Source of the DNA: Ophelia neglecta
Lineage: Eukaryota
Length of the DNA: 64,000 bases
Direction of reading: 5' to 3'
Assembly: GCA_965285935.1 (NCBI GenBank)
Contig: OZ260664.1
Span: forward strand, 22,506,001-22,570,000
Of this stretch, positions 3,001 to 62,101 are shown piece after piece. Every line of letters begins with the position of its first letter. Within the stretch, counting starts at the first letter, position 1. The position numbers and the translations under genes are program-made. The notes below the pieces were generated by a model that saw nothing but the letters and a program-made list of their open reading frames with translations, made no database searches and was not told where the DNA came from.

Positions 3001-6000
3001 TGTGAGATATCAAATCTGTATGAAGCAGCTGCACTTGCCCCCTAGCCTTAGATAAGCGGAAAAGATCACTCAAAGCTATTGCAGTATTTTGCTGCGTCAG
3101 TGTTAAAACAACTTACACATGAGCAGAGCCATCGATCGTAATTCGACTTTTCTCGAGCCTGATGAAATCCAAGTAATAGCAAGTTTGCTATTAGAGAACC
3201 AAATCTTTTCTTCTGGCAACACCTTAAGCAGGAGTGAATGACGAGGCAAAATCATTGATCCCCAATAGTCCACATAACCGGTTGGCAGAAAGACTATAGC
3301 TTTGAAATATATGTTCGTTTCTAAAGAAAAATATGATTTAATAATAACAAACCCCGGGGCTGTCATTGGTATCTTTCAGTTTTAAAATGTTCAATCAATG
3401 AGACACTTACTGAGTGTTTTGTTATTGAATGAAAACAAATAATCTACTTATTTTCTGAATTGAGGATGACACGTCACTTCTCAAGCCAATATATCGTATA
3501 GTAAATCTTTTCCATAGGAGAACATATATAAACCCGCGACCAAACAGAAACACGGGAGTGGCTACCCAGCAGAGCTAGTCCTCATTGGCAAAACACTTCC
3601 ATCCACACCGGGACAACATTGTTGGTGATGATGACGTCAAGTAGGTCGATAAACTGAGGTGCAATTCAAATGTGTTCGAAAATTCATTATGTATTCACCA
3701 AATAGGTCCAGATATAGGTACGATTCTTCGTAAATTAGCTATCGAACGATTTTTGGCGTTCATGCTGTCACATCTTTGAAATATTTTTCTCCTAACACGC
3801 TAATAAACTTTTTGGGAGATGCGTTCAGGTGTTTGTTGCCTCTAGCATAAAGCAGGTGATGACTCATTTGAACCGATTTAAAGGCCTCTACATCATTAAT
3901 GATTTTCTACGCGGAATCCAATCTCGTTTTTTGTTGTTGTTCGAATTCAATGGCCGACATGGGAAATTATTTCCTAGCCGGATTAAAAGCCTTGCGCGGT
4001 CCTCTTTTGATTATACACCCTCATTCAATGTTCGTCTAGCCAATTTCTAAAGAAGATATCATGGTATTCATTTATTTCATAAATATATTTTTTTCTAGTT
4101 GGTCAATGTTTTTGAAATATATATTCTTCTCTAAAGCATTACCATTCTTTGTTTTTCAGAATACATATAATTTATATTAATTTGAGAAAGAGGAATTCTA
4201 AAAGTTTTGGTAGTTAAAAACAAAAGAGAAAACATATATGGCGCATTTCGTAGCATATATTTCTATTATTTGTTTATAACATTACCGCCAGCTCATAACG
4301 AATTTCCTTCGGCAATATACCTGTAAACAAAACATGACTTTCTGCCATTTAATCCATACGCTCTGCCATAATCTAACAAAACAATGAAAAGAAAAAAAAG
4401 GAATTTGTGACTTATATGGTTAGCATATTTAAACCGAGAGGAATAGTGATTCTGTTCGTTTCCCTTGCATTTCCATGGTCATTTTAAACAACCTGTCAAG
4501 CTATGGCTATTTCACACTTACTACACCTGCATTTGACTGTACATAACTGAATGCGCCACAGCCAGTCTACCGACTCAGCAAGGTTCTACATCATAAAACG
4601 ACAAATGGTATTACACAGTGCTCCTGCTCGCTTACAAATGTACTTTCTGAGACAGCTTGGTGTTTAATTCCCGTAGTTAGAGACACTATGGACTTGGCGA
4701 ACTTCGCACACACTCAGGGTTGAACTTATTTCTTAAATAGGATACTGTTTAATAAATGTTAGCAATGGAAAAAGCGATCGAGGCTATCTCCTAGGGAGTG
4801 CACCCAAATATTTCGAGACACATTTTGGTCGTGGTATGTAGTGACGTATTTCAGCAATCTACTGATAACCAACTGCGCTCCTTTCGTTGCAAATGGGTAG
4901 CTATTCACAAGGGTATCACTAGTTGTTTCAACAACATATCACATCTAGTTCCAATGTAAGTTTTCCTCTATCTGTGCATATATGTCTTTACCAATATAGA
5001 AATAATAGATAACAACAGGCCTTATAGAATCGATTATTTGTACAAGAAAATGTCATCTAATTGTATGCTGTGGTAATTTGTACTTAACCATTCTTTATTT
5101 ACTCCCTTGCCAATTAAAGCGTTAGTGACAAAAACTCCTAGATATCTTCTGCGTTATATTTAGGTAACCGAATGACCGAGTTGATGCCTATTTGCTCGCT
5201 CTCAAGGTGGGAATATTTTTCAGGCGGTTAATTAAGATTATGAAGATCATTTCTGTTAATTACCTGAAGTGACTTCCTAAAGTTGTTTTTTTAGTTTTCT
5301 TTTTTTTTATTATATATATTTTTATTCTAGGTAATTTTTGTTCATAGTGCACAAGATATTCAAGTTTATCAAAGTTCATAATACAAACAGAATCAGAGTG
5401 AAAAATAATAGTTATGCTAAGCAAAAATTTACTAATAATAAAGATAAAACTGCATGCTTCTATTGGAAATATTATATATTACTCGATATTGTACTTTAAT
5501 TACGAAAGAGACGTTATTGGCTAGCCCTATGTACGGACATAATATGGTGCTAGCCAGATTGAATTAATATATAAAGCACACACACACAAATGATTCCGGA
5601 AATAATAAGACGAGGTACATCAGAATATGTCTGGTGCTCGTGTTAAAGAGGAGATGAGGGCATAAGCAAAGCTGCTTATATACCCTGATAGAAAAGACAT
5701 TATTAAATACTTGATAGAAATGCAGCGCAGGTGCAAGTGTGCATGAATGGCCCGAGATATTGAGCGTTCTGATGCGAAACAAGGTTAACTTATCTTGACA
5801 ATGACCAGAGATTTATACAAATCAACTTCCTATTGGCATCAATCGAAGGGAAATCTTTAGTGAGTGCCCAACTCCAAACCGCGTCTCCATGCATGTTATA
5901 CATTCTAAGATGTTAAGCAAAGCATGCGAAAAAGATGAAAATAAACAATTCGTTATTTGCCGAACTTCGGACACTCAAGTGCCCCTAACACAACTGAACA

Positions 6001-9000
6001 AACAAGTTCGGACAGTAAGCTGATAAGCCAGAAGAGTCGGTGCAGAAGCCACCCCCCCCCCCCCCGGTCCCTGCGTGGAACATTTACTCTTCATCCTTCC
6101 AACTCACACATGATGATGGGCAATACAGTATTTCATAAGAGGCTTCTTGTGATATAATCAACGAGTCTGTCATAGCGTTTACTGAGCCTTACTTCTGTCA
6201 ATCGTCTGCAGAATTGTGCGCCTGCATTTTTTATCCGCCATCTTACAGAATCAGCACTTTCATTTGCCTTAAGTGGTAATACTGGGTTAACGAGCTTTCT
6301 AAAATGGTGCAGTGCACATTCAGACGTTGAATTGACAAAACTGCCCAGATTGGCATGCCTTTTAATCGAGTTTCAACGACCCCCTCCCCATCCTTGATTT
6401 ACCAACTTACAGCTGAATGCAAGAAAAGGAAGCTTGAGACGAAGAAATCTTAAGACTGGGGCTTTAACGTAAATCCGACTACCAACTACTTGAGTTTCGG
6501 TGTAATGAGAACAGCTTCTATCTGTATAATTTATACTGTCAACGTACAGCTAGTGAGATATGAGAATTTCCAAGGGTATGAAACACGTAGTAAATAAATA
6601 GAATTATACGTTTAAGGTGCTAAAGTTCGGTAGGCAGAGTCACAATAACATTGTGTTGAAATTTTACATGTGAAATACCATAAGTGTACAATAATTGGAT
6701 GTCATGCCAGCCTTTTCTATTTTGTATTATATTTTTGTCTCCGTTGGTTTACATGTTTTCCTGTTTAGCGATTAGAATAGCTTTGTTGTTGACTTCAAAA
6801 GGAAAGTTAACAAACATAGCATCAGTCTATGGTAATAAGGTAAAAAAAATATCTCAACACATTGGCTAACAAAAATTTGAAATAATGCTTAGTGCGTTTT
6901 CGAAACAATGTGTCCTTTTACATAGGACACATTGGCAGCTCTATCGTCATTTTAAATATCACACTTTTCCATGTCATACACATACACATTTGTAGAAAGC
7001 CCAATCCGATAATTCATTTCGCGCTTTGTACTATCTTTGAGCTTTTGATGACGTTTCAAAAATTCTTGGCTATGGTATGTCCTTTTCAAAGACCAGACAT
7101 GGAAACCACTTCGGCTTTCTATACTCTGTGAATAAACACGCTTCCTCAAACAGCGACTGTATATTAATCAACTAAACTTTAGTTATATCCGTCATTATTG
7201 TTTGAATATTGAAGTTTTTGGACACTGACCAATTGGTCTGTGATCTCGTCTGAATTATTTAACCAAGTCATGTTCCCTGGAATCCAGCAGTTACATTTTA
7301 GTTTGTACCAGGGTCAGTCCTAGACAATGAAAAGATTTAAAAGAGAAAGAACTCTTTGTTAATTGTTAGCACAACCTTTGCAATGAACAAATATAAAACC
7401 TATACTTGTACTGTTAACACACTTCGTTCTACTGATTCCTTTTTTTTATTCTGTAAAAGTAAAGGCAACGCACCCTAGGAATAGTTTGAAAGAATGATCT
7501 TTTTCAATCACTTAATTCTTCTACATGACGGGCGGTAATGTTAAGGGTGAATATGACTTAAGCCCATCAAGGCAACACAATTCAAATATACAATTCATTA
7601 CCCTTAATTTGTTGCCACATTTATATATACTTTACAACTGGGAACAAACGTTTCTGCATGGCTTTTATATTTACAACGGAAAACAGCCCTGTCCGTTATA
7701 TTTTAGATAGCTAAACTTTGGGAGAGAGTTTAACTTCTATTACTACGGCACAGAAAGCGGAAACATGTACAAACGTCACATGGATTGTGAATTGAAAAAA
7801 TTAAAACTATAACCCGGAAATCAGTTCAAATAGAATTCTTTGTGATTGTGCACTTGTGTGTGTTTGTGTGATAATGTTCAGGTAGTCGTGTACTGCAAGT
7901 CATGCATTAGAACAAAAAGTTTTGCTGTGGAGGGTTGGATCATTTCAGCTACAAATTAACACCTACCTTGTTTGGAAAACATTACTTCTCAATTCTACAA
8001 CCTGCGTATACTTGGCTTATGGCGTTTACTTACACTTGGCATTGGTGTGCTTGTGCACCGGTTGTTATGTGTATACAAATGTGTTGGTGTACCGTGAAAT
8101 CCAAGTTGCTATATACATTCAGATGTGTTATTTTAGCCAGTTTTATTTATTTTTGCTTCAACATGTTAATGAATCAGGTTAATGATGTTTTAGTTGAACA
8201 ACAACAATTTTCTGTTACATAAAAACACCATTTTAGATTCAGCTTGCGGACCTTAGACTTAAAGCAATAAACCGGCAGGGTTAATAGGCTTTTTACCCTA
8301 CAAAAACAAGTTATATTATACTTACTTCTCATAAGTACTTCTCTAGGAAAGGAGTATACGGAAGGCCATAATTGCCTCGGAAAGGTAATTGATCGAAAAA
8401 TAAGGGAATAACAATGGGATGCGATATCTGTATTCTGTAACATATGTAGGCGGCCTTTTATTTTGAACCAAGCAATAGATCTGGACAGACAAAAGTGCAT
8501 CTGATAGTTTCCATTACTCATGTCTAGGCAGCTGCATTTTTGTCCCTGTTTAAATTTGAAATGTCAATAACACCTTCCCGAAGACTTACCCCCTTACATA
8601 ATAGCTTCAATAGTCAGTCCCTCCATTATGCCCAAACGTTAACAGTGATGGTGTTTCAAATTTCTTTAGTTAAACCCAAATTCTTAAAGCATTATTTTCT
8701 ATTTCAAATGCATCCTTCATTTTAGGGAGACCAATTTTTTAACATTATTCCATTTAAAAAAATGATCTAAATCTATTATATTATGTGACTTGCGGTTTGG
8801 TGAGTGTACAATTAGTCAGTAAACAAATGTGATAATATGGCGCCTATTATACGTGCTAGCATCCTATGTACTTGTATATGAATTACTTGAATATGGATAG
8901 GATGTCTAAACGGAGGAATCAAGACGGATAAGTAACTGAAGTTTATAACCTGCGTTTTGTATTTTGTGTACTTTGAGTTTACCATCACATCTGCATACAA

Positions 9001-19198: not shown

Positions 19199-20731
19199 TC
19201 ACCTTGCTTTGAAATGTACCTTATATGGTCTTGGTCTGAGCACGACACCTGGAATTGGGTCAAGGCTGTAGGTCACATGGTCTACTGGGGTCACATTGAA
19301 TTTCTGGAGCAGTTTAACAAGAAAGAGAAACACCTCAGTTCGGGAAATGTTCTCACCGACACATTGTCGCCTCCCGATTCCAAATGCAGAGTATTGTGAT
19401 GCAAGTTCTGGGTTTATAATGCCATTTTTCAGAAATCGATCTGGCTTAAATAGAAAAGGATCTTCCCATAGTTCACTATCTCTGTTGATAGAATACAGAT
19501 TGACTAGCACAAACGTATTAGTTGGTACCTGCCAGCCGTTCAGCGATGTGTCTTTGATGGTAGAATGAGGAAGAGCGAACGGTACTGCCGTTGAGTGGCG
19601 CAGAACCTCATGTACGCATGCGTGAGTGTAATGCATATTGTTCATCAGGGCAACAGTTGGCTTTCGGTTCTTCCCCATGACGACGTCTATTTCATCCTGT
19701 ACACGCTTTTGCACATCCGGGTTTACTGCCATGTAAAGCACTGTCCAGGAAATAGTGAGATAAACAATATCTAACCCCGCACCTAGGTATTCTTGCACAG
19801 TGTGCATCACGTGATCCGGTTCTAATACGCATGGTCGTCGGACGCCGATCTCAATCAGTGCGTCCAAACAGTCACGAATGCGGCCTGACTCAAAGGTTTC
19901 TAGATGTCGAGCTTCCTCCTTTCGAGTTAGTCTAAGAATGTCGTGGCACACATCTTCAATCTCGCGACACAGATGGGACATGAAAACACGTGCCCAGGGG
20001 AAGAAATTTAACAGATTTCCACGATTGTGGCAACCTATCAGCTGCAAGGTTTTTTCTACCATTTTAATAAAATCCTCACCTGTGCAGTTACCATAGCAGA
20101 GTCGATATTTAGCACGCGCAACTGCCCATATAATGTCTTTCTCTGGGTTAATTGCACAGCCCTCATAACTTTTGAGTTTTTCCAACAAACTGGTGAATTC
20201 TTCGTCGATTGTACTGTCAAGAAATCCGCAGCTTTTTACACCCAGTTTGATTGCTCGTTCTGCCAGTTTCCGGTGCGCCTTCCATTGCGGACTGTAGCTA
20301 TTGAATACCATGCTCTTACCTTCGGATGCCTTTTGAAATGTCAATAAGGGTGGTCGACCGGCAAAAGTAGTCGCTTGGTCTACGAGAGCCTTCCGAACAG
20401 TAGCCAGTCCATTAAGAACCAGGACATCGGTGTTGCCAATTTTCACCCGAAATAAGTCTCCGTGCTTCCGACGGAATGAGGCCATTGTGCTCAATATGTC
20501 TCGACTAAAGAACAGGCATGGCGTCCCAATGCCGGGCACGCTCCAGGGACCCGGGAGGGTTCGAGATGCTCGAGAACGGCGGGCTACCAATGCTGCCAAC
20601 ATAAGCAAAAGACAACTTAGAAAGACTGTCAATGTCCACAAAGTGCTCTTCTCGCAGGCTAAGGCTGTCTCCTGCCCATTGTCTGAATTGTTTTTTAAAT
20701 CTGGCGTTACTTTAAACAACACAGAGGCCAT
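19199..20731 (-). CDS. Cytochrome P450, CYP2 clan, CYP1-like (CYP1A/1C-like); uninterrupted CDS, 510 aa from first in-frame ATG
   Basis: Motifs in order: signal-anchor LWTLTVFLSCLLLMLAALVA, basic RRSRASR and proline hinge LPGPWSVPGIG; CYP1-type FAGRP and GKSMVFNSYSPQWKAHR (WxxxR); I-helix GAGLDI; K-helix EVLR; PFALPH; FKPDRF; heme motif FGIGRRQCVG (Cys codon 19361-19363). The ORF track starts at a GTG (20860), but the first in-frame ATG is at 20731. Confidence 0.95.
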   Translation of the reverse strand: MASVLFKVTPDLKNNSDNGQETALACEKSTLWTLTVFLSCLLLMLAALVARRSRASRTLPGPWSVPGIGTPCLFFSRDILSTMASFRRKHGDLFRVKIGNTDVLVLNGLATVRKALVDQATTFAGRPPLLTFQKASEGKSMVFNSYSPQWKAHRKLAERAIKLGVKSCGFLDSTIDEEFTSLLEKLKSYEGCAINPEKDIIWAVARAKYRLCYGNCTGEDFIKMVEKTLQLIGCHNRGNLLNFFPWARVFMSHLCREIEDVCHDILRLTRKEEARHLETFESGRIRDCLDALIEIGVRRPCVLEPDHVMHTVQEYLGAGLDIVYLTISWTVLYMAVNPDVQKRVQDEIDVVMGKNRKPTVALMNNMHYTHACVHEVLRHSTAVPFALPHSTIKDTSLNGWQVPTNTFVLVNLYSINRDSELWEDPFLFKPDRFLKNGIINPELASQYSAFGIGRRQCVGENISRTEVFLFLVKLLQKFNVTPVDHVTYSLDPIPGVVLRPRPYKVHFKAR

Positions 20732-20877
20732 ATCGAGTTTTCTTATGCAAAAATGTTGTCCACGTTGCCTGGCCAAACATACAGAAGGCAAACAGTGATG
20801 GTCAGCATTAGTTATAGCTGACAGCGACCAAGCTAAGAACGCATCGCTGCCTACGTGCACTGCGGGCTTACTACATC

Positions 20878-20965
20878 TGACCCCAGCGGGCCATGTATTT
20901 AGGGTTATCTAAGCCCATCGGGTCAGGGACGTTCAGTGAACGACCGACAAAGTGAACCCAGTGCA
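20878..20965 (-). promoter_or_regulatory. Candidate cis-regulatory module of the P450: nuclear-receptor half-site cluster plus TATA-like TAAATA
   Basis: TGACCC 20878-20883; GGGTCA-ggga-CGTTCA 20920-20935 (DR4-like); CGTTCA-g-TGAACG 20930-20942 (perfect IR1 palindrome); TGAACC 20953-20958; TAAATA on the minus strand at 20896-20901. Confidence 0.45.
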
Positions 20966-25500: not shown

Positions 25501-26392
25501 TGCCTAAAATCATGTCTGCTACTAATCAAAATACACCATAGGACGTTTCGTAACCCCCCCCCCCCCCCCCCCCGCCCACCACCAACATCCTCCTACCCCC
25601 AACCCGTCCACCACTTGGAACATTCCTCAACAAGTTTGTTTATTGGTTAATGTCTGCTAGAATAAGTTCACTTAGCGATGAAAGTACCTCCCGTGCATTT
25701 TCATTGACATAAACTATTGCCTACCATTAACGCATTGCTAATTTGAGTCCGGTTTAGACTTTTTAGCGTCCAGAAAGGATATCAGGCCACACCAGGTCAA
25801 GTGTCTATTAGATGCACAACCAAGGCAATCTGAAAAAAATATACATTGCTGGCTCATAAATATACGCACGATGAGAAAAACACCAATGGGGCTAATTTAT
25901 CTTGGACCAGTGCGAATCAGTAAAAGGTCACATATTTAATGTTACGGTTATCTTTAACTGACGGAGGTCTCAAACAATCAGGAATGCGGAGATTAGATAA
26001 TGTACGTACCTTTTAGGCCGCAGGGAATTACTCAGGCGATGAATGATTCGGATTTACCGATCGCTTATTGGCTAGTTCTAAGTGACATTCAGTCATGTCA
26101 TGTTATGTCGGTTTTATGATTTAGTGAATGGGCCAAGTCTACAACACGTTAATTGTATGTTAAACTTCAGCATTTCATTACTTGAAAACTTTCTAGCTCA
26201 TATATTAAAGGTACTGCCAGTCAATGCAAGATAATGCAAAATCAATGTTATATTTATTTACTGATGAGCGACCGCACAAAAAGGGCCACCATTGACCTTT
26301 GGGATTCATAATTACCTTAATTTATTAGCGTAAGCCATTTGTTTACAGTAAATTGGCGCTTACTATTAACTTACGCGCTGATACCTTCCTCA

Positions 26393-26554
26393 TGTAACAA
26401 CCGGTGGTCTCAGCGGGGTTTGAACTCACTACCCTTGGGTCTCCAGCCAACCACTCTACCAAGTTTGCCAAAGGGGTAACCCCTCTAGCCAAGCTAGTAG
26501 GAGTGTTGTGATCATGCACCAGTGGCCATGACCTGCACATACATCTCTGTTACA
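26393..26554 (-). mobile_element. Solo-LTR-like element (162 bp) containing a tRNA-like Pol III promoter
   Basis: Ends TGTAACA...TGTTACA; flanking direct repeat CTCA (26389-26392 and 26555-26558); minus-strand A box TGGCAAACTTGG (26459-26470) and B box GAGTTCAAACC (26417-26427). Confidence 0.75.
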
Positions 26555-27116
26555 CTCATAAAGATTTATGTCATATAACTACGCATGCGGTCTATTGTAA
26601 TTATGTCACTTCCGGAATGTAAGGCAAAATAATAGGCCATACAGAATACTGTCTATGAGAGAGCGTATTTATTTTCGAACCCTATATTGTTGAACACAAT
26701 GTATTATATATATATGTTTCTGTATACGTAACAGCATCAATACATTTTGGGGAGGTCTTTTCAATTTACTATTTATTTATGCGCAGTACCAACACTGAGA
26801 GCTCTGGATCGAAATCCCGCGCCAGGACATTTTCTCCGTCGAAATACTCCATTCAGACTCACCTGTCTATAAATGTCTTCAATTGCGACCAACTAATACT
26901 GAGCTATAGATCGGCAGTGTTTGATACCTCATCATTGCGTATCCAAAATTTATTTTCCCCACTACATATGTAACATCATGACCCCAAACAATGTAAAAAA
27001 TTATAGACTGTACTATAACAATCACGAGGTCTTCGCCACAATTCAAAGCTTGCAATAAACCCCCCATATTAATATATACTAGCAGGCTGCTCAGAATAAT
27101 CAACTTGAAGTGCTAA

Positions 27117-43731: not shown

Positions 43732-43907
43732 CAGTGAAACCTGTGAATTAAGACCACCCAAGGGACTGGAAAAAGCTGGTCTGATTTCTGAGGTGGTCGG
43801 TTTAGAAAGGTTTTTTTAACATTGAAAGCATACAGAATGGTCATATGAGTGGTCTTATTTTACAGGTGGTCTGATTATAGAGGTGGTCTTTAAGGCAGGT
43901 TTCATTA
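43732..43907. mobile_element. Tc1/mariner(pogo)-type MITE, copy 1
   Basis: ta|CAGTGAAACCTG...CAGGTTTCA terminal inverted repeat with internal repeated gaggtggtc motifs. A second copy lies at 61912-62088. Confidence 0.75.
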
Positions 43908-43994
43908 AATACTTTAATTTCTAGGTAAAATCAACCTTATTGTTGATCCTAATTTTTTAGCAACCGGGGCTGCAGACGGTGATTATCAATAATG

Positions 43995-61911: not shown

Positions 61912-62088
61912 ACGAGAAACATGTGATTTAAGACCGGCCAAAGGACTGGCAAATACTGGTCTGTTTATAGAGGTGGTCTGTTTACACAGATCATTTTACA
62001 CTTAATGTGTATACTATGCTCTTCATTTAAGGGGTCTGAATTGGCAGGTGGTCTGAATATAGAGGTGTCTTGAAGGCAGGTTTCACTG
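61912..62088. mobile_element. Tc1/mariner(pogo)-type MITE, copy 2 (inside the putative 3' UTR)
   Basis: gaaacatgtgatttaagacc...aggactgg...ctggtctg...gaggtggtc...aaggcaggtttcactg; colinear with 43732-43907. Confidence 0.7.
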
Positions 62089-62101
62089 AATATATATTAA
62101 T

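Follow-up and report, generated by a model that had tools for sequence, protein, structure and literature searches.

The 162-bp unit at positions 26393–26554 of the window (the whole stretch of 64,000 nucleotides analysed) is a solo LTR of a young, gene-less TRIM. This TRIM is likely transcribed by Pol III, is predicted to be primed by tRNA-Lys(UUU), and likely owes its copying and integration to the proteins of a 7.35-kb Gypsy element whose primer is tRNA-Thr(UGU). The probability of this reading is estimated at about 0.78. It builds on features observed directly in the genome: the two-LTR structure, the PBS complementarity, the PPT, the 4-bp target site duplications (TSDs), identical LTR pairs, and TRIM-Gypsy composites bounded by a single TSD.

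In the proposed pathway, Pol III would start near the palindrome of the 5′ LTR and would reach the 3′ LTR without encountering a T4 run. The TRIM RNA would then be packaged in a Gypsy particle and reverse transcribed by the normal LTR scheme, occasional strand transfers between TRIM and Gypsy leaving composites behind. The Gypsy integrase would accept the TG...CA ends of the TRIM. In the window, recombination between two LTRs would have left the solo copy. Two further steps are more speculative, namely that a hairpin followed by TTT terminates transcription in the 3′ LTR only, and that the block around box B was copied from the primer tRNA of the helper.

Elements of this class have already been published. 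How the dependence of a TRIM on an autonomous element is maintained is not known, and partners have been guessed from a shared PBS (Kojima, PMC10886601; consulted in part). The added value of the present case is a partner that is visible in TSD-bounded fusions and that uses a different primer. This would mean that a PBS match may point to the wrong helper and that helpers are better sought through fusion junctions.

The Solo LTR in the Window

The features of the element are as follows (window coordinates).

26389..26392: left copy of the 4-bp target site duplication (CTCA)
26393..26554, minus strand (sense strand of the element): solo LTR, 162 bp, of a 424-bp Helenus-type TRIM
26548..26554, minus strand: 5′ (U3) terminal inverted repeat, putative integrase attachment end; minor-variant rate 0.019 on average among 45 LTRs recovered through their PBS
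26456..26500, minus strand: long imperfect hairpin, much stabler on the sense strand
26472..26484, minus strand: 13-nt palindrome that forms the tip of the hairpin; after it comes the sole TTT run of the element's sense strand
26459..26470, minus strand: putative box A of a type 2 Pol III promoter, TGGCAAACTTGG; minor-variant rate 0.009
26419..26440, minus strand: 22-nt block like positions 38–59 of tRNA-Thr(UGU); 19/22 in the window copy
26417..26425, minus strand: box B, GTTCAAACC; minor-variant rate 0.015
26405..26411, minus strand: GAGACCA, 12 nt before the 3′ end
26393..26399, minus strand: 3′ (U5) terminal inverted repeat, with CA at the end
26555..26558: right copy of the target site duplication (CTCA)

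An initial annotation of this DNA had described a 162-bp element with 7-bp inverted ends (TGTAACA...TGTTACA) and a 4-bp CTCA duplication, carrying on its minus strand an A box, a B box and GAGACCA near the 3′ end, and devoid of a SINE-type tail. All of this agrees with the sequence, the three motifs lying at 26470–26459, 26425–26417 and 26411–26405, and the solo LTR with its CTCA target duplication is confirmed. The palindrome was also placed correctly, but its spelling was that of the minus strand; it is of odd length, with an A at its centre on the plus strand (26484–26472). The minus strand of the window is the sense strand of the element, since in two-LTR copies the PBS follows the 3′ end of the LTR and the PPT precedes its 5′ end.

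The unit within the LTR is only tRNA-like and is no tRNA gene. ARAGORN found no tRNA in the window, Rfam gave no match for the element at E ≤ 10, and a cloverleaf fold of the tRNA-like unit was not obtained. No 3′ tail is present on the solo LTR and no AATAAA was seen in it. In local alignments, the score of the unit against the host tRNA-Phe (52) exceeds those of all 500 shuffles (33.4 ± 4.3, maximum 46), and its score against the tRNA-Lys gene (47) does not exceed all of its shuffles (38.9 ± 4.7, maximum 55). An empty site was searched for in contigs of three runs from one sample of one individual, where no joint skipping the element was seen, a weak observation in so small a sample; two flank contigs of the element site from one sample, which have 1 and 4 differences, each continue into the LTR.

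The TRIM Family in the Genome

A 25-nt LTR motif, searched with at most one mismatch, gave 217 matches in the genome versus 0 for the reversed control. The recurrence of the LTR is not due to chance, a single-copy origin is excluded and, counted by these motif matches, the family comprises 217 LTR copies or more. A DNA search of the organism's own genome (762 Mb) yielded 68 matches from 40 scored of 331 candidates; among the scored candidates, most copies are 96–99% identical and many lie 262 bp apart. Two-LTR copies consist of an LTR of 162 bp, an internal part of 100 bp and a second LTR of 162 bp, that is 424 bp in all, and arrays with a period of 262 bp reach at least 4 units. In the internal part a single A comes first, then the 18-nt PBS; at its other end stands the PPT, a run of 11 purines directly 5′ of the TG of the 3′ LTR. 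These copies, with their PBS, PPT and 4-bp TSDs, bear out the initial proposal of a solo LTR from an integrase-type miniature retroelement; the copies with identical ends and varying 4-bp TSDs that it led one to expect, as well as two-LTR and tandem forms with PBS and PPT, are all found.

The fetched loci hold 93 distinct units with 104 full LTRs. Both termini are present in 56 units, of which 27 are single 162-mers. An exact 4-bp TSD flanks 31 of these 56 (two of the 31 being one duplicated locus), one has a 5-bp and none a 6-bp duplication; identity of 4-bp flanks by chance was computed at 0.005 per unit. Copies reaching beyond the LTR ends, truncation or tails of the SINE kind, and missing TSDs had been named beforehand as evidence against an LTR element. 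They do not characterise the family as a whole, though 37 of the 93 units are truncated or composite and 25 of the 56 intact-ended ones have no exact TSD; about 11 of these 25 are parts of composites or PBS-extended, and the rest are not all explained. Several units without TSD show a one-base difference, or AA before and AT after the element; such AA/AT flanks would fit unprocessed cDNA ends. The solo LTRs L111, L123, L128 and L187 are flanked in this way and have no TSD, as if cDNA ends had been captured by repair and not by integrase.

Six of the 33 adjacent LTR pairs are identical and five more are one base apart, which indicates that the family is young. At L017 (positions 1075–1925; C5:91.317 Mb), two TRIMs are joined tail to tail via 5 bases that resemble both cDNA ends, with TATG on both outer sides and two LTR subtypes swapped between the partners. 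LTR relatives that have diverged further, their U3 being different or their box A canonical, occur at L204 (C5:45.025 Mb), L186, L205 and L050 and are possibly older sister families.

The Predicted Primer of the TRIM

The PBS of the TRIM is perfectly complementary (18/18, or 19 with A58) to the 3′ end of one tRNA, namely the last 15 nt encoded by its gene followed by CCA. A pattern search for the tRNA 3′ end predicted from the PBS gave 66 matches in all, versus 6 for the control, and the gene is present as 47 exact and 15 one-mismatch copies in an array with a 1.93-kb unit on C8. It has a UUU anticodon and a 21-nt intron, adjoins a tRNA-Phe gene and scores 61 bits in Rfam. The array (C8:12.58–12.74 Mb; L061–L080) comprises about 62 tandem 1.93-kb units, each with a tRNA-Phe(GAA) gene and an intron-containing tRNA-Lys(UUU) gene whose discriminator base is U. 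The intron-containing gene is probably the working tRNA-Lys(UUU) of the host, because an intronless form of its anticodon arm has no match in the assembly. Among the papers listed by a literature search, none dealt with such an intron-containing tRNA-Lys(UUU) gene, and the PBS type of the TRIM is absent from Fig. S2 of the published Helenus survey (Kojima, 2024, PMC10886601). Self-priming was considered as well, an 8-mer of the PBS occurring also in the hairpin arm of the LTR, and was rejected, since the perfect match to a host tRNA explains the PBS.

All 56 exact matches to 16 nt of the PBS lie in or beside TRIM sequence, so that no autonomous element with the primer of the TRIM was seen. Three of the 56 run on into non-TRIM DNA; in the one locus scanned for ORFs (L088), an OTU match was obtained. 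There, an ORF with an OTU protease domain (5851–7107) lies about 4.8 kb downstream of a TRIM LTR and PBS devoid of the rest of the internal part.

The Probable Gypsy Helper and Its Composites with the TRIM

Some of the TRIM copies without TSD are joined to another LTR, that of a 7.35-kb element with 54 motif matches (control, 2). One copy of this element has identical 1353-bp LTRs, a GTTG TSD, a PNMA gag and an uninterrupted RT-RNaseH-integrase ORF, that is, in Gypsy order, from which it is taken to be a young Gypsy. Like the TRIM, this Ty3/Gypsy element has TGTAAC...GTTACA ends, a 4-bp TSD and a one-base spacer before its PBS. It differs from it by an unrelated, Pol II-type LTR and by its primer, its PBS matching tRNA-Thr(UGU). 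The two PBSs have in common only the 1-nt spacer A and the first 7–8 nt, and no significant DNA similarity was found beyond the termini and these ~8 nt (best E 0.13). The helper was therefore identified by the footprints of fusion and not by PBS identity. Four independent TRIM-helper composites were found, each enclosed in its entirety by a single 4-bp TSD.

L143: helper LTR that passes, precisely at the PBS, into TRIM internal-LTR-internal-LTR; TSD TGTA
L144: whole helper, 43 nt of tRNA-Thr complement, then TRIM; TSD TATG
C1:2.29 Mb: TRIM-helper-TRIM mosaic with microhomologies of 3–4 nt; TSD CACA
L180/L168: inverted TRIM LTR and helper array; TSD ATAG; occurs at two places but is counted as one

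One extremity of L143, L144 and L180 belongs to one element and the other extremity to another, which indicates that these composites were integrated whole and are not nested insertions. The structure of L143 fits an intermolecular plus-strand transfer. At the L144 junction, the 43 nt are the complement of tRNA-Thr with its CCA, reaching as far as position 34 in the anticodon, and the TRIM is without its first four bases; among the contigs listed from public runs, none bridges this junction. The junction is consistent with plus-strand synthesis having read through the primer as far as the anticodon loop; in HIV-1 such a product is known to arise in minor amounts (PMC13191261, seen in part). 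Taken together, L143 and L144 point to reverse transcription of both elements in one particle. The end-to-end composites (L180, L089, L017) could derive from nuclear end-joining of cDNAs from separate particles. Helper tandem arrays with a period of ~7.2 kb, headed by an inverted TRIM LTR, lie at C2:108.19–108.23 Mb and 108.59–108.62 Mb (6 and 4 units, as judged by motif spacing).

This raises the question of whether the partnership is a dedicated one. The TRIM is also fused to a second Gypsy, with a standard Lys PBS, within one CAAA TSD (L089), and two more Gypsies, 54–55% identical to the helper in pol, adjoin TRIM sequence with no matching TSDs found (L145, L193); the helper may therefore not be exclusive. 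Accordingly, the TRIM may be a generalist mobilised by any Gypsy active in the germline, the composites simply marking the elements then active, and a decentralised mobilisation of non-autonomous LTR elements has been argued for (PMC13570524, as far as consulted). We regard this as the less probable account, though one to be reckoned with: the sense-orientation junctions located at the PBS, the LTR end or the primer tRNA (L143, L144, C1:2.29 Mb) all involve the Thr-primed family, whose PBS shares its first 7–8 nt and 1-nt spacer with that of the TRIM and whose primer matches the B-box block of the TRIM. The unit at L089 (4711–9579; C5:110.87 Mb) measures 4.9 kb; its TRIM U3 ends point outward and enclose a circularly permuted Gypsy fragment with one LTR. 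Each of the inner junctions shows a 5-nt microhomology between the PBS and the gag stop, and one CAAA duplication flanks the whole. The Gypsy at L193 (553–8107; C1:116.85 Mb) has long open frames and stands head to head with a TRIM; no TGG-type PBS was found after its first LTR. In the freely accessible literature searched, no direct description of TRIM-helper chimeras, of a primer mismatch or of annelid TRIMs was found.

The B-Box Block and tRNA-Thr

The 104 LTRs combine two U3 types with two variants of a 14-nt block that precedes box B (YT 63, OT 20, OO 10, YO 5, unclassified 6). All four combinations are present, as strand transfer between co-packaged RNAs would give. Compared over a 22-nt B-box block with three tRNA types only, the T-type agrees with tRNA-Thr(UGU) at 20 of 22 positions, two positions not fitting, and the O-type at 14; tRNA-Lys and tRNA-Phe reach 12–13. 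This tRNA-Thr-like block is carried by 83 of the 104 LTRs. T- and O-type blocks differ at 9 positions, 7 of which take the base of tRNA-Thr(UGU), and their flanks barely differ. A degenerate search returned 37 matches of tRNA-Thr type, one of them the L144 junction, and 2 with the TRIM-type block. The O-type looks like the older subfamily, its copies being more diverged and resembling, by eye, published Helenus elements. It is plausible, if speculative, that the B-box block was captured from tRNA-Thr(UGU), the primer of the helper. In outcome, the "promoter mimicry" of a host gene by Cassandra is a precedent. The mechanism proposed there differs, since mutation or gene conversion, and not the primer of a helper, is held responsible for the mimicry (bioRxiv 2023.07.14.548913, consulted in part).

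Hairpin, Boxes and Predicted Transcription by Pol III

Transcription of the TRIM by Pol III is predicted from its conserved boxes; for published Helenus it is likewise unvalidated, according to the parts of the survey consulted (PMC10886601). Box A reads TGGCA, a one-base deviation from the TRGCY of Kojima, and box B has AGTTC in the T-type, not GGTTC, which is found in the O-type. In the 45 LTRs retrieved by PBS only, on which column variation was measured, boxes, hairpin and termini vary by 0.007–0.036 per column versus 0.115 in U3. No T4 run occurs on either strand of an intact copy, and one is present in 1 of 89 distinct LTRs. The TTT after the palindrome is the sole one on the sense strand of the element.

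The hairpin occupies about positions 54–99 of the LTR. Its 5′ arm (26500–26480) pairs with the 3′ arm, made of the right half of the palindrome, TTT and box A. The predicted folding energy is −22.4 kcal/mol on the sense strand (z −3.3) versus −15.6 on the antisense strand (z −1.9), and that of the core is −16.4 (z −3.7) versus −8.1 (z −0.7). The sense strand is favoured because the mismatches are of the G-U type, which suggests an RNA structure. The start site of a tRNA-type Pol III promoter would presumably fall in or near the LTR palindrome. With such a start, both arms would be transcribed only in the 3′ LTR, so that the full hairpin could form there alone. Short U tracts next to RNA structure can terminate Pol III, though TTT itself was not seen among those tracts in the part of the study consulted (bioRxiv 2020.09.11.294140). 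It may be speculated that hairpin and TTT end transcription in the 3′ LTR only; a read-through RNA would also serve as template. In four Gypsy LTRs searched for the hairpin-TTT module with a cut-off of −9 kcal/mol, it was absent from three, and the fourth gave one weak, unrelated-looking match. The LTR of the second Gypsy (L089, ~6670–6730) has a palindrome and TTT, by eye 14 nt as in sturgeon Helenus, below the hairpin cut-off.

Alternatively, the TRIM could be copied from Pol II or read-through transcripts, boxes A and B being kept for other reasons, such as TFIIIC binding or RNA structure, and the hairpin being a signal for packaging or dimerisation. By eye, and as far as the supplement was available, several published Helenus LTRs have T4–T5 behind box B, which would stop Pol III in the 5′ LTR, and many published palindromes are of even length and loop-less, like dimerisation signals; moreover, TTT is shorter than a normal terminator. 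However, no part of the LTR is more conserved than the two boxes, a T4 run is missing from the element, no AATAAA was seen in the LTR, and the related Cassandra is reported to be transcribed by Pol III (PMC10886601, seen in part). We therefore consider this alternative rather improbable, and Pol III transcription is retained in the preferred reading. If correct, the hairpin-TTT module and the tRNA-Thr block lead to predictions on how Pol III makes an LTR template and on how its promoter is renewed.

Comparison with Known Elements

Helenus (TRIMp3) designates animal TRIMs with a tRNA-like LTR, a PBS, a PPT and a 4-bp TSD, mobilised by Gypsy (Kojima, 2024, PMC10886601; consulted in part). The present element is non-coding, has two LTRs and, with 424 bp, stays under about 1 kb. 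Boxes A and B of tRNA type lie inside its LTR, with one-base deviations from the motifs of Kojima. The PBS, just after the 5′ LTR, is complementary to a host tRNA 3′ end (18/18), a PPT precedes the 3′ LTR, and the TSD is of 4 bp (31/56 exact) in an animal. The tRNA-like part is neither a functional tRNA nor the primer, the PBS matching a host gene. Mobilisation by Gypsy is indicated by the TSD-bounded composites; the PBS of the partner differs, unlike in the pairs of Kojima, where partners were linked by a shared PBS. All testable Helenus features being present, the TRIM is a new family of the published Helenus/TRIMp3 kind. The initial annotation had considered a new family possible; this holds for the family, the kind being already published, as was suspected there.

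By eye, the nearest published families, in the material consulted, are Helenus-1_CGi, -2_CVi, -3_SaGl and -6_SaGl of oysters and Helenus-1_LiLo of a nemertean (PMC10886601), which appear to share CCTACTAGC...GCTAG, GGG-palindrome-CCC, TTT and box A, on to box B (Data S1). Five short TRIM motifs had no match in the part of the supplement consulted. Bivalve Helenus families measure 325–580 bp, compared with 424 bp here, and solo LTRs and arrays occur in both (PMC10886601). Annelids are absent from the six phyla listed for Helenus in the consulted parts of that paper, so that, if the host is an annelid, one phylum is added to the published range.

Ajax, a 5S-promoter TRIM of nemerteans, has a similar size and, by eye, the same order of palindrome, TTT and box A, and differs by a 5S box A/IE/box C, a 5-bp TSD and a Leu primer, where the TRIM has tRNA boxes A and B (PMC10886601, in part). 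A 5S-derived promoter, as in Ajax and Cassandra, is not found in the TRIM, which has a tRNA-type B box and no Rfam match. Cassandra, a plant 5S TRIM, likewise has a Pol III promoter in its LTR and forms tandem arrays; its promoter is of 5S and not of tRNA type, and its autonomous partners are stated to be unknown in the parts consulted (PMC7215508; bioRxiv 2023.07.14.548913). A short R ending inside the 3′ LTR has been reported for it (as cited in PMC10886601). Like the TRIM, biv-TRIM is a small non-autonomous two-LTR element of marine invertebrates; it differs in having no canonical PBS and no detected partner, and the consulted parts of its description contain no mention of a Pol III promoter (PMC6934838).

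That the unit is a SINE, a MITE or a tRNA pseudogene with LTR-like ends by chance, as its A and B boxes, the CCA near its 3′ end, its 7-bp terminal inverted repeats and the frequency of single 162-mers (27/56) might suggest, has a next to negligible probability, since the two-LTR copies, with their 18-nt PBS, PPT, identical LTR pairs and fixed 4-bp TSDs, rule it out and neither a tail nor a cloverleaf is present. The 3′ tail, variable TSD length, 5′ truncation and lack of an LTR pair typical of tRNA-derived SINEs are not the pattern of this family, and a MITE would have inverted termini without the PBS, the PPT and the direct terminal repeats, all three of which the TRIM has.

In many bivalve, nemertean, coelacanth and teleost Helenus LTRs and in both Ajax LTRs, a different palindrome is seen by eye in the same place; others are without it. 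Neither "palindrom" nor "hairpin" occurs in the main text of Kojima as far as it was searched (PMC10886601). A wider picture can be proposed only tentatively, and is doubtful as a whole: the TRIM would ride in the particle of an unlike Gypsy with a different primer, of which 7 nt at the acceptor end are shared; its B box would be renewed from the tRNA of the helper; a hairpin effective by its position and UUU would terminate transcription in the 3′ LTR; and the occurrence of the module across Helenus and Ajax would reflect one ancient origin or a shared mechanism. If true, the presence of the module in Ajax as well as in the Helenus of bivalves, nemerteans, coelacanth and teleosts would argue against the many independent SINE insertions that have been proposed.

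The P450 Gene and Other Neighbours in the Window

One gene near the element is given for context.

19199..20908, minus strand: intronless cytochrome P450 ORF (Pfam PF00067, E 6e-91)

The element lies 5.66 kb from the first in-frame ATG of this ORF (20731), in agreement with the distance of about 5.7 kb first given. The solo LTR is oriented toward the P450 and the first T5 on that strand is met at 26282–26278, 5.5 kb short of the gene; nothing supports an effect of the solo LTR on the P450, including the recruitment of TFIIIC by box B that was initially suggested. The P450 is at most 48% identical to any of its 12 database matches, and the 2 named relatives among these 12 are from annelids (46% and 40%). 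A match to an erythrocruorin-linker domain also passes the cut-off, though such linkers are known from ten phyla (PMC6400237); on this evidence the host is probably an annelid. Elsewhere in the window, two copies of a repeat with GGTGGTCT-type subunits lie 18 kb apart (43768–43911 and 61948–62092); this repeat is probably another small transposon.
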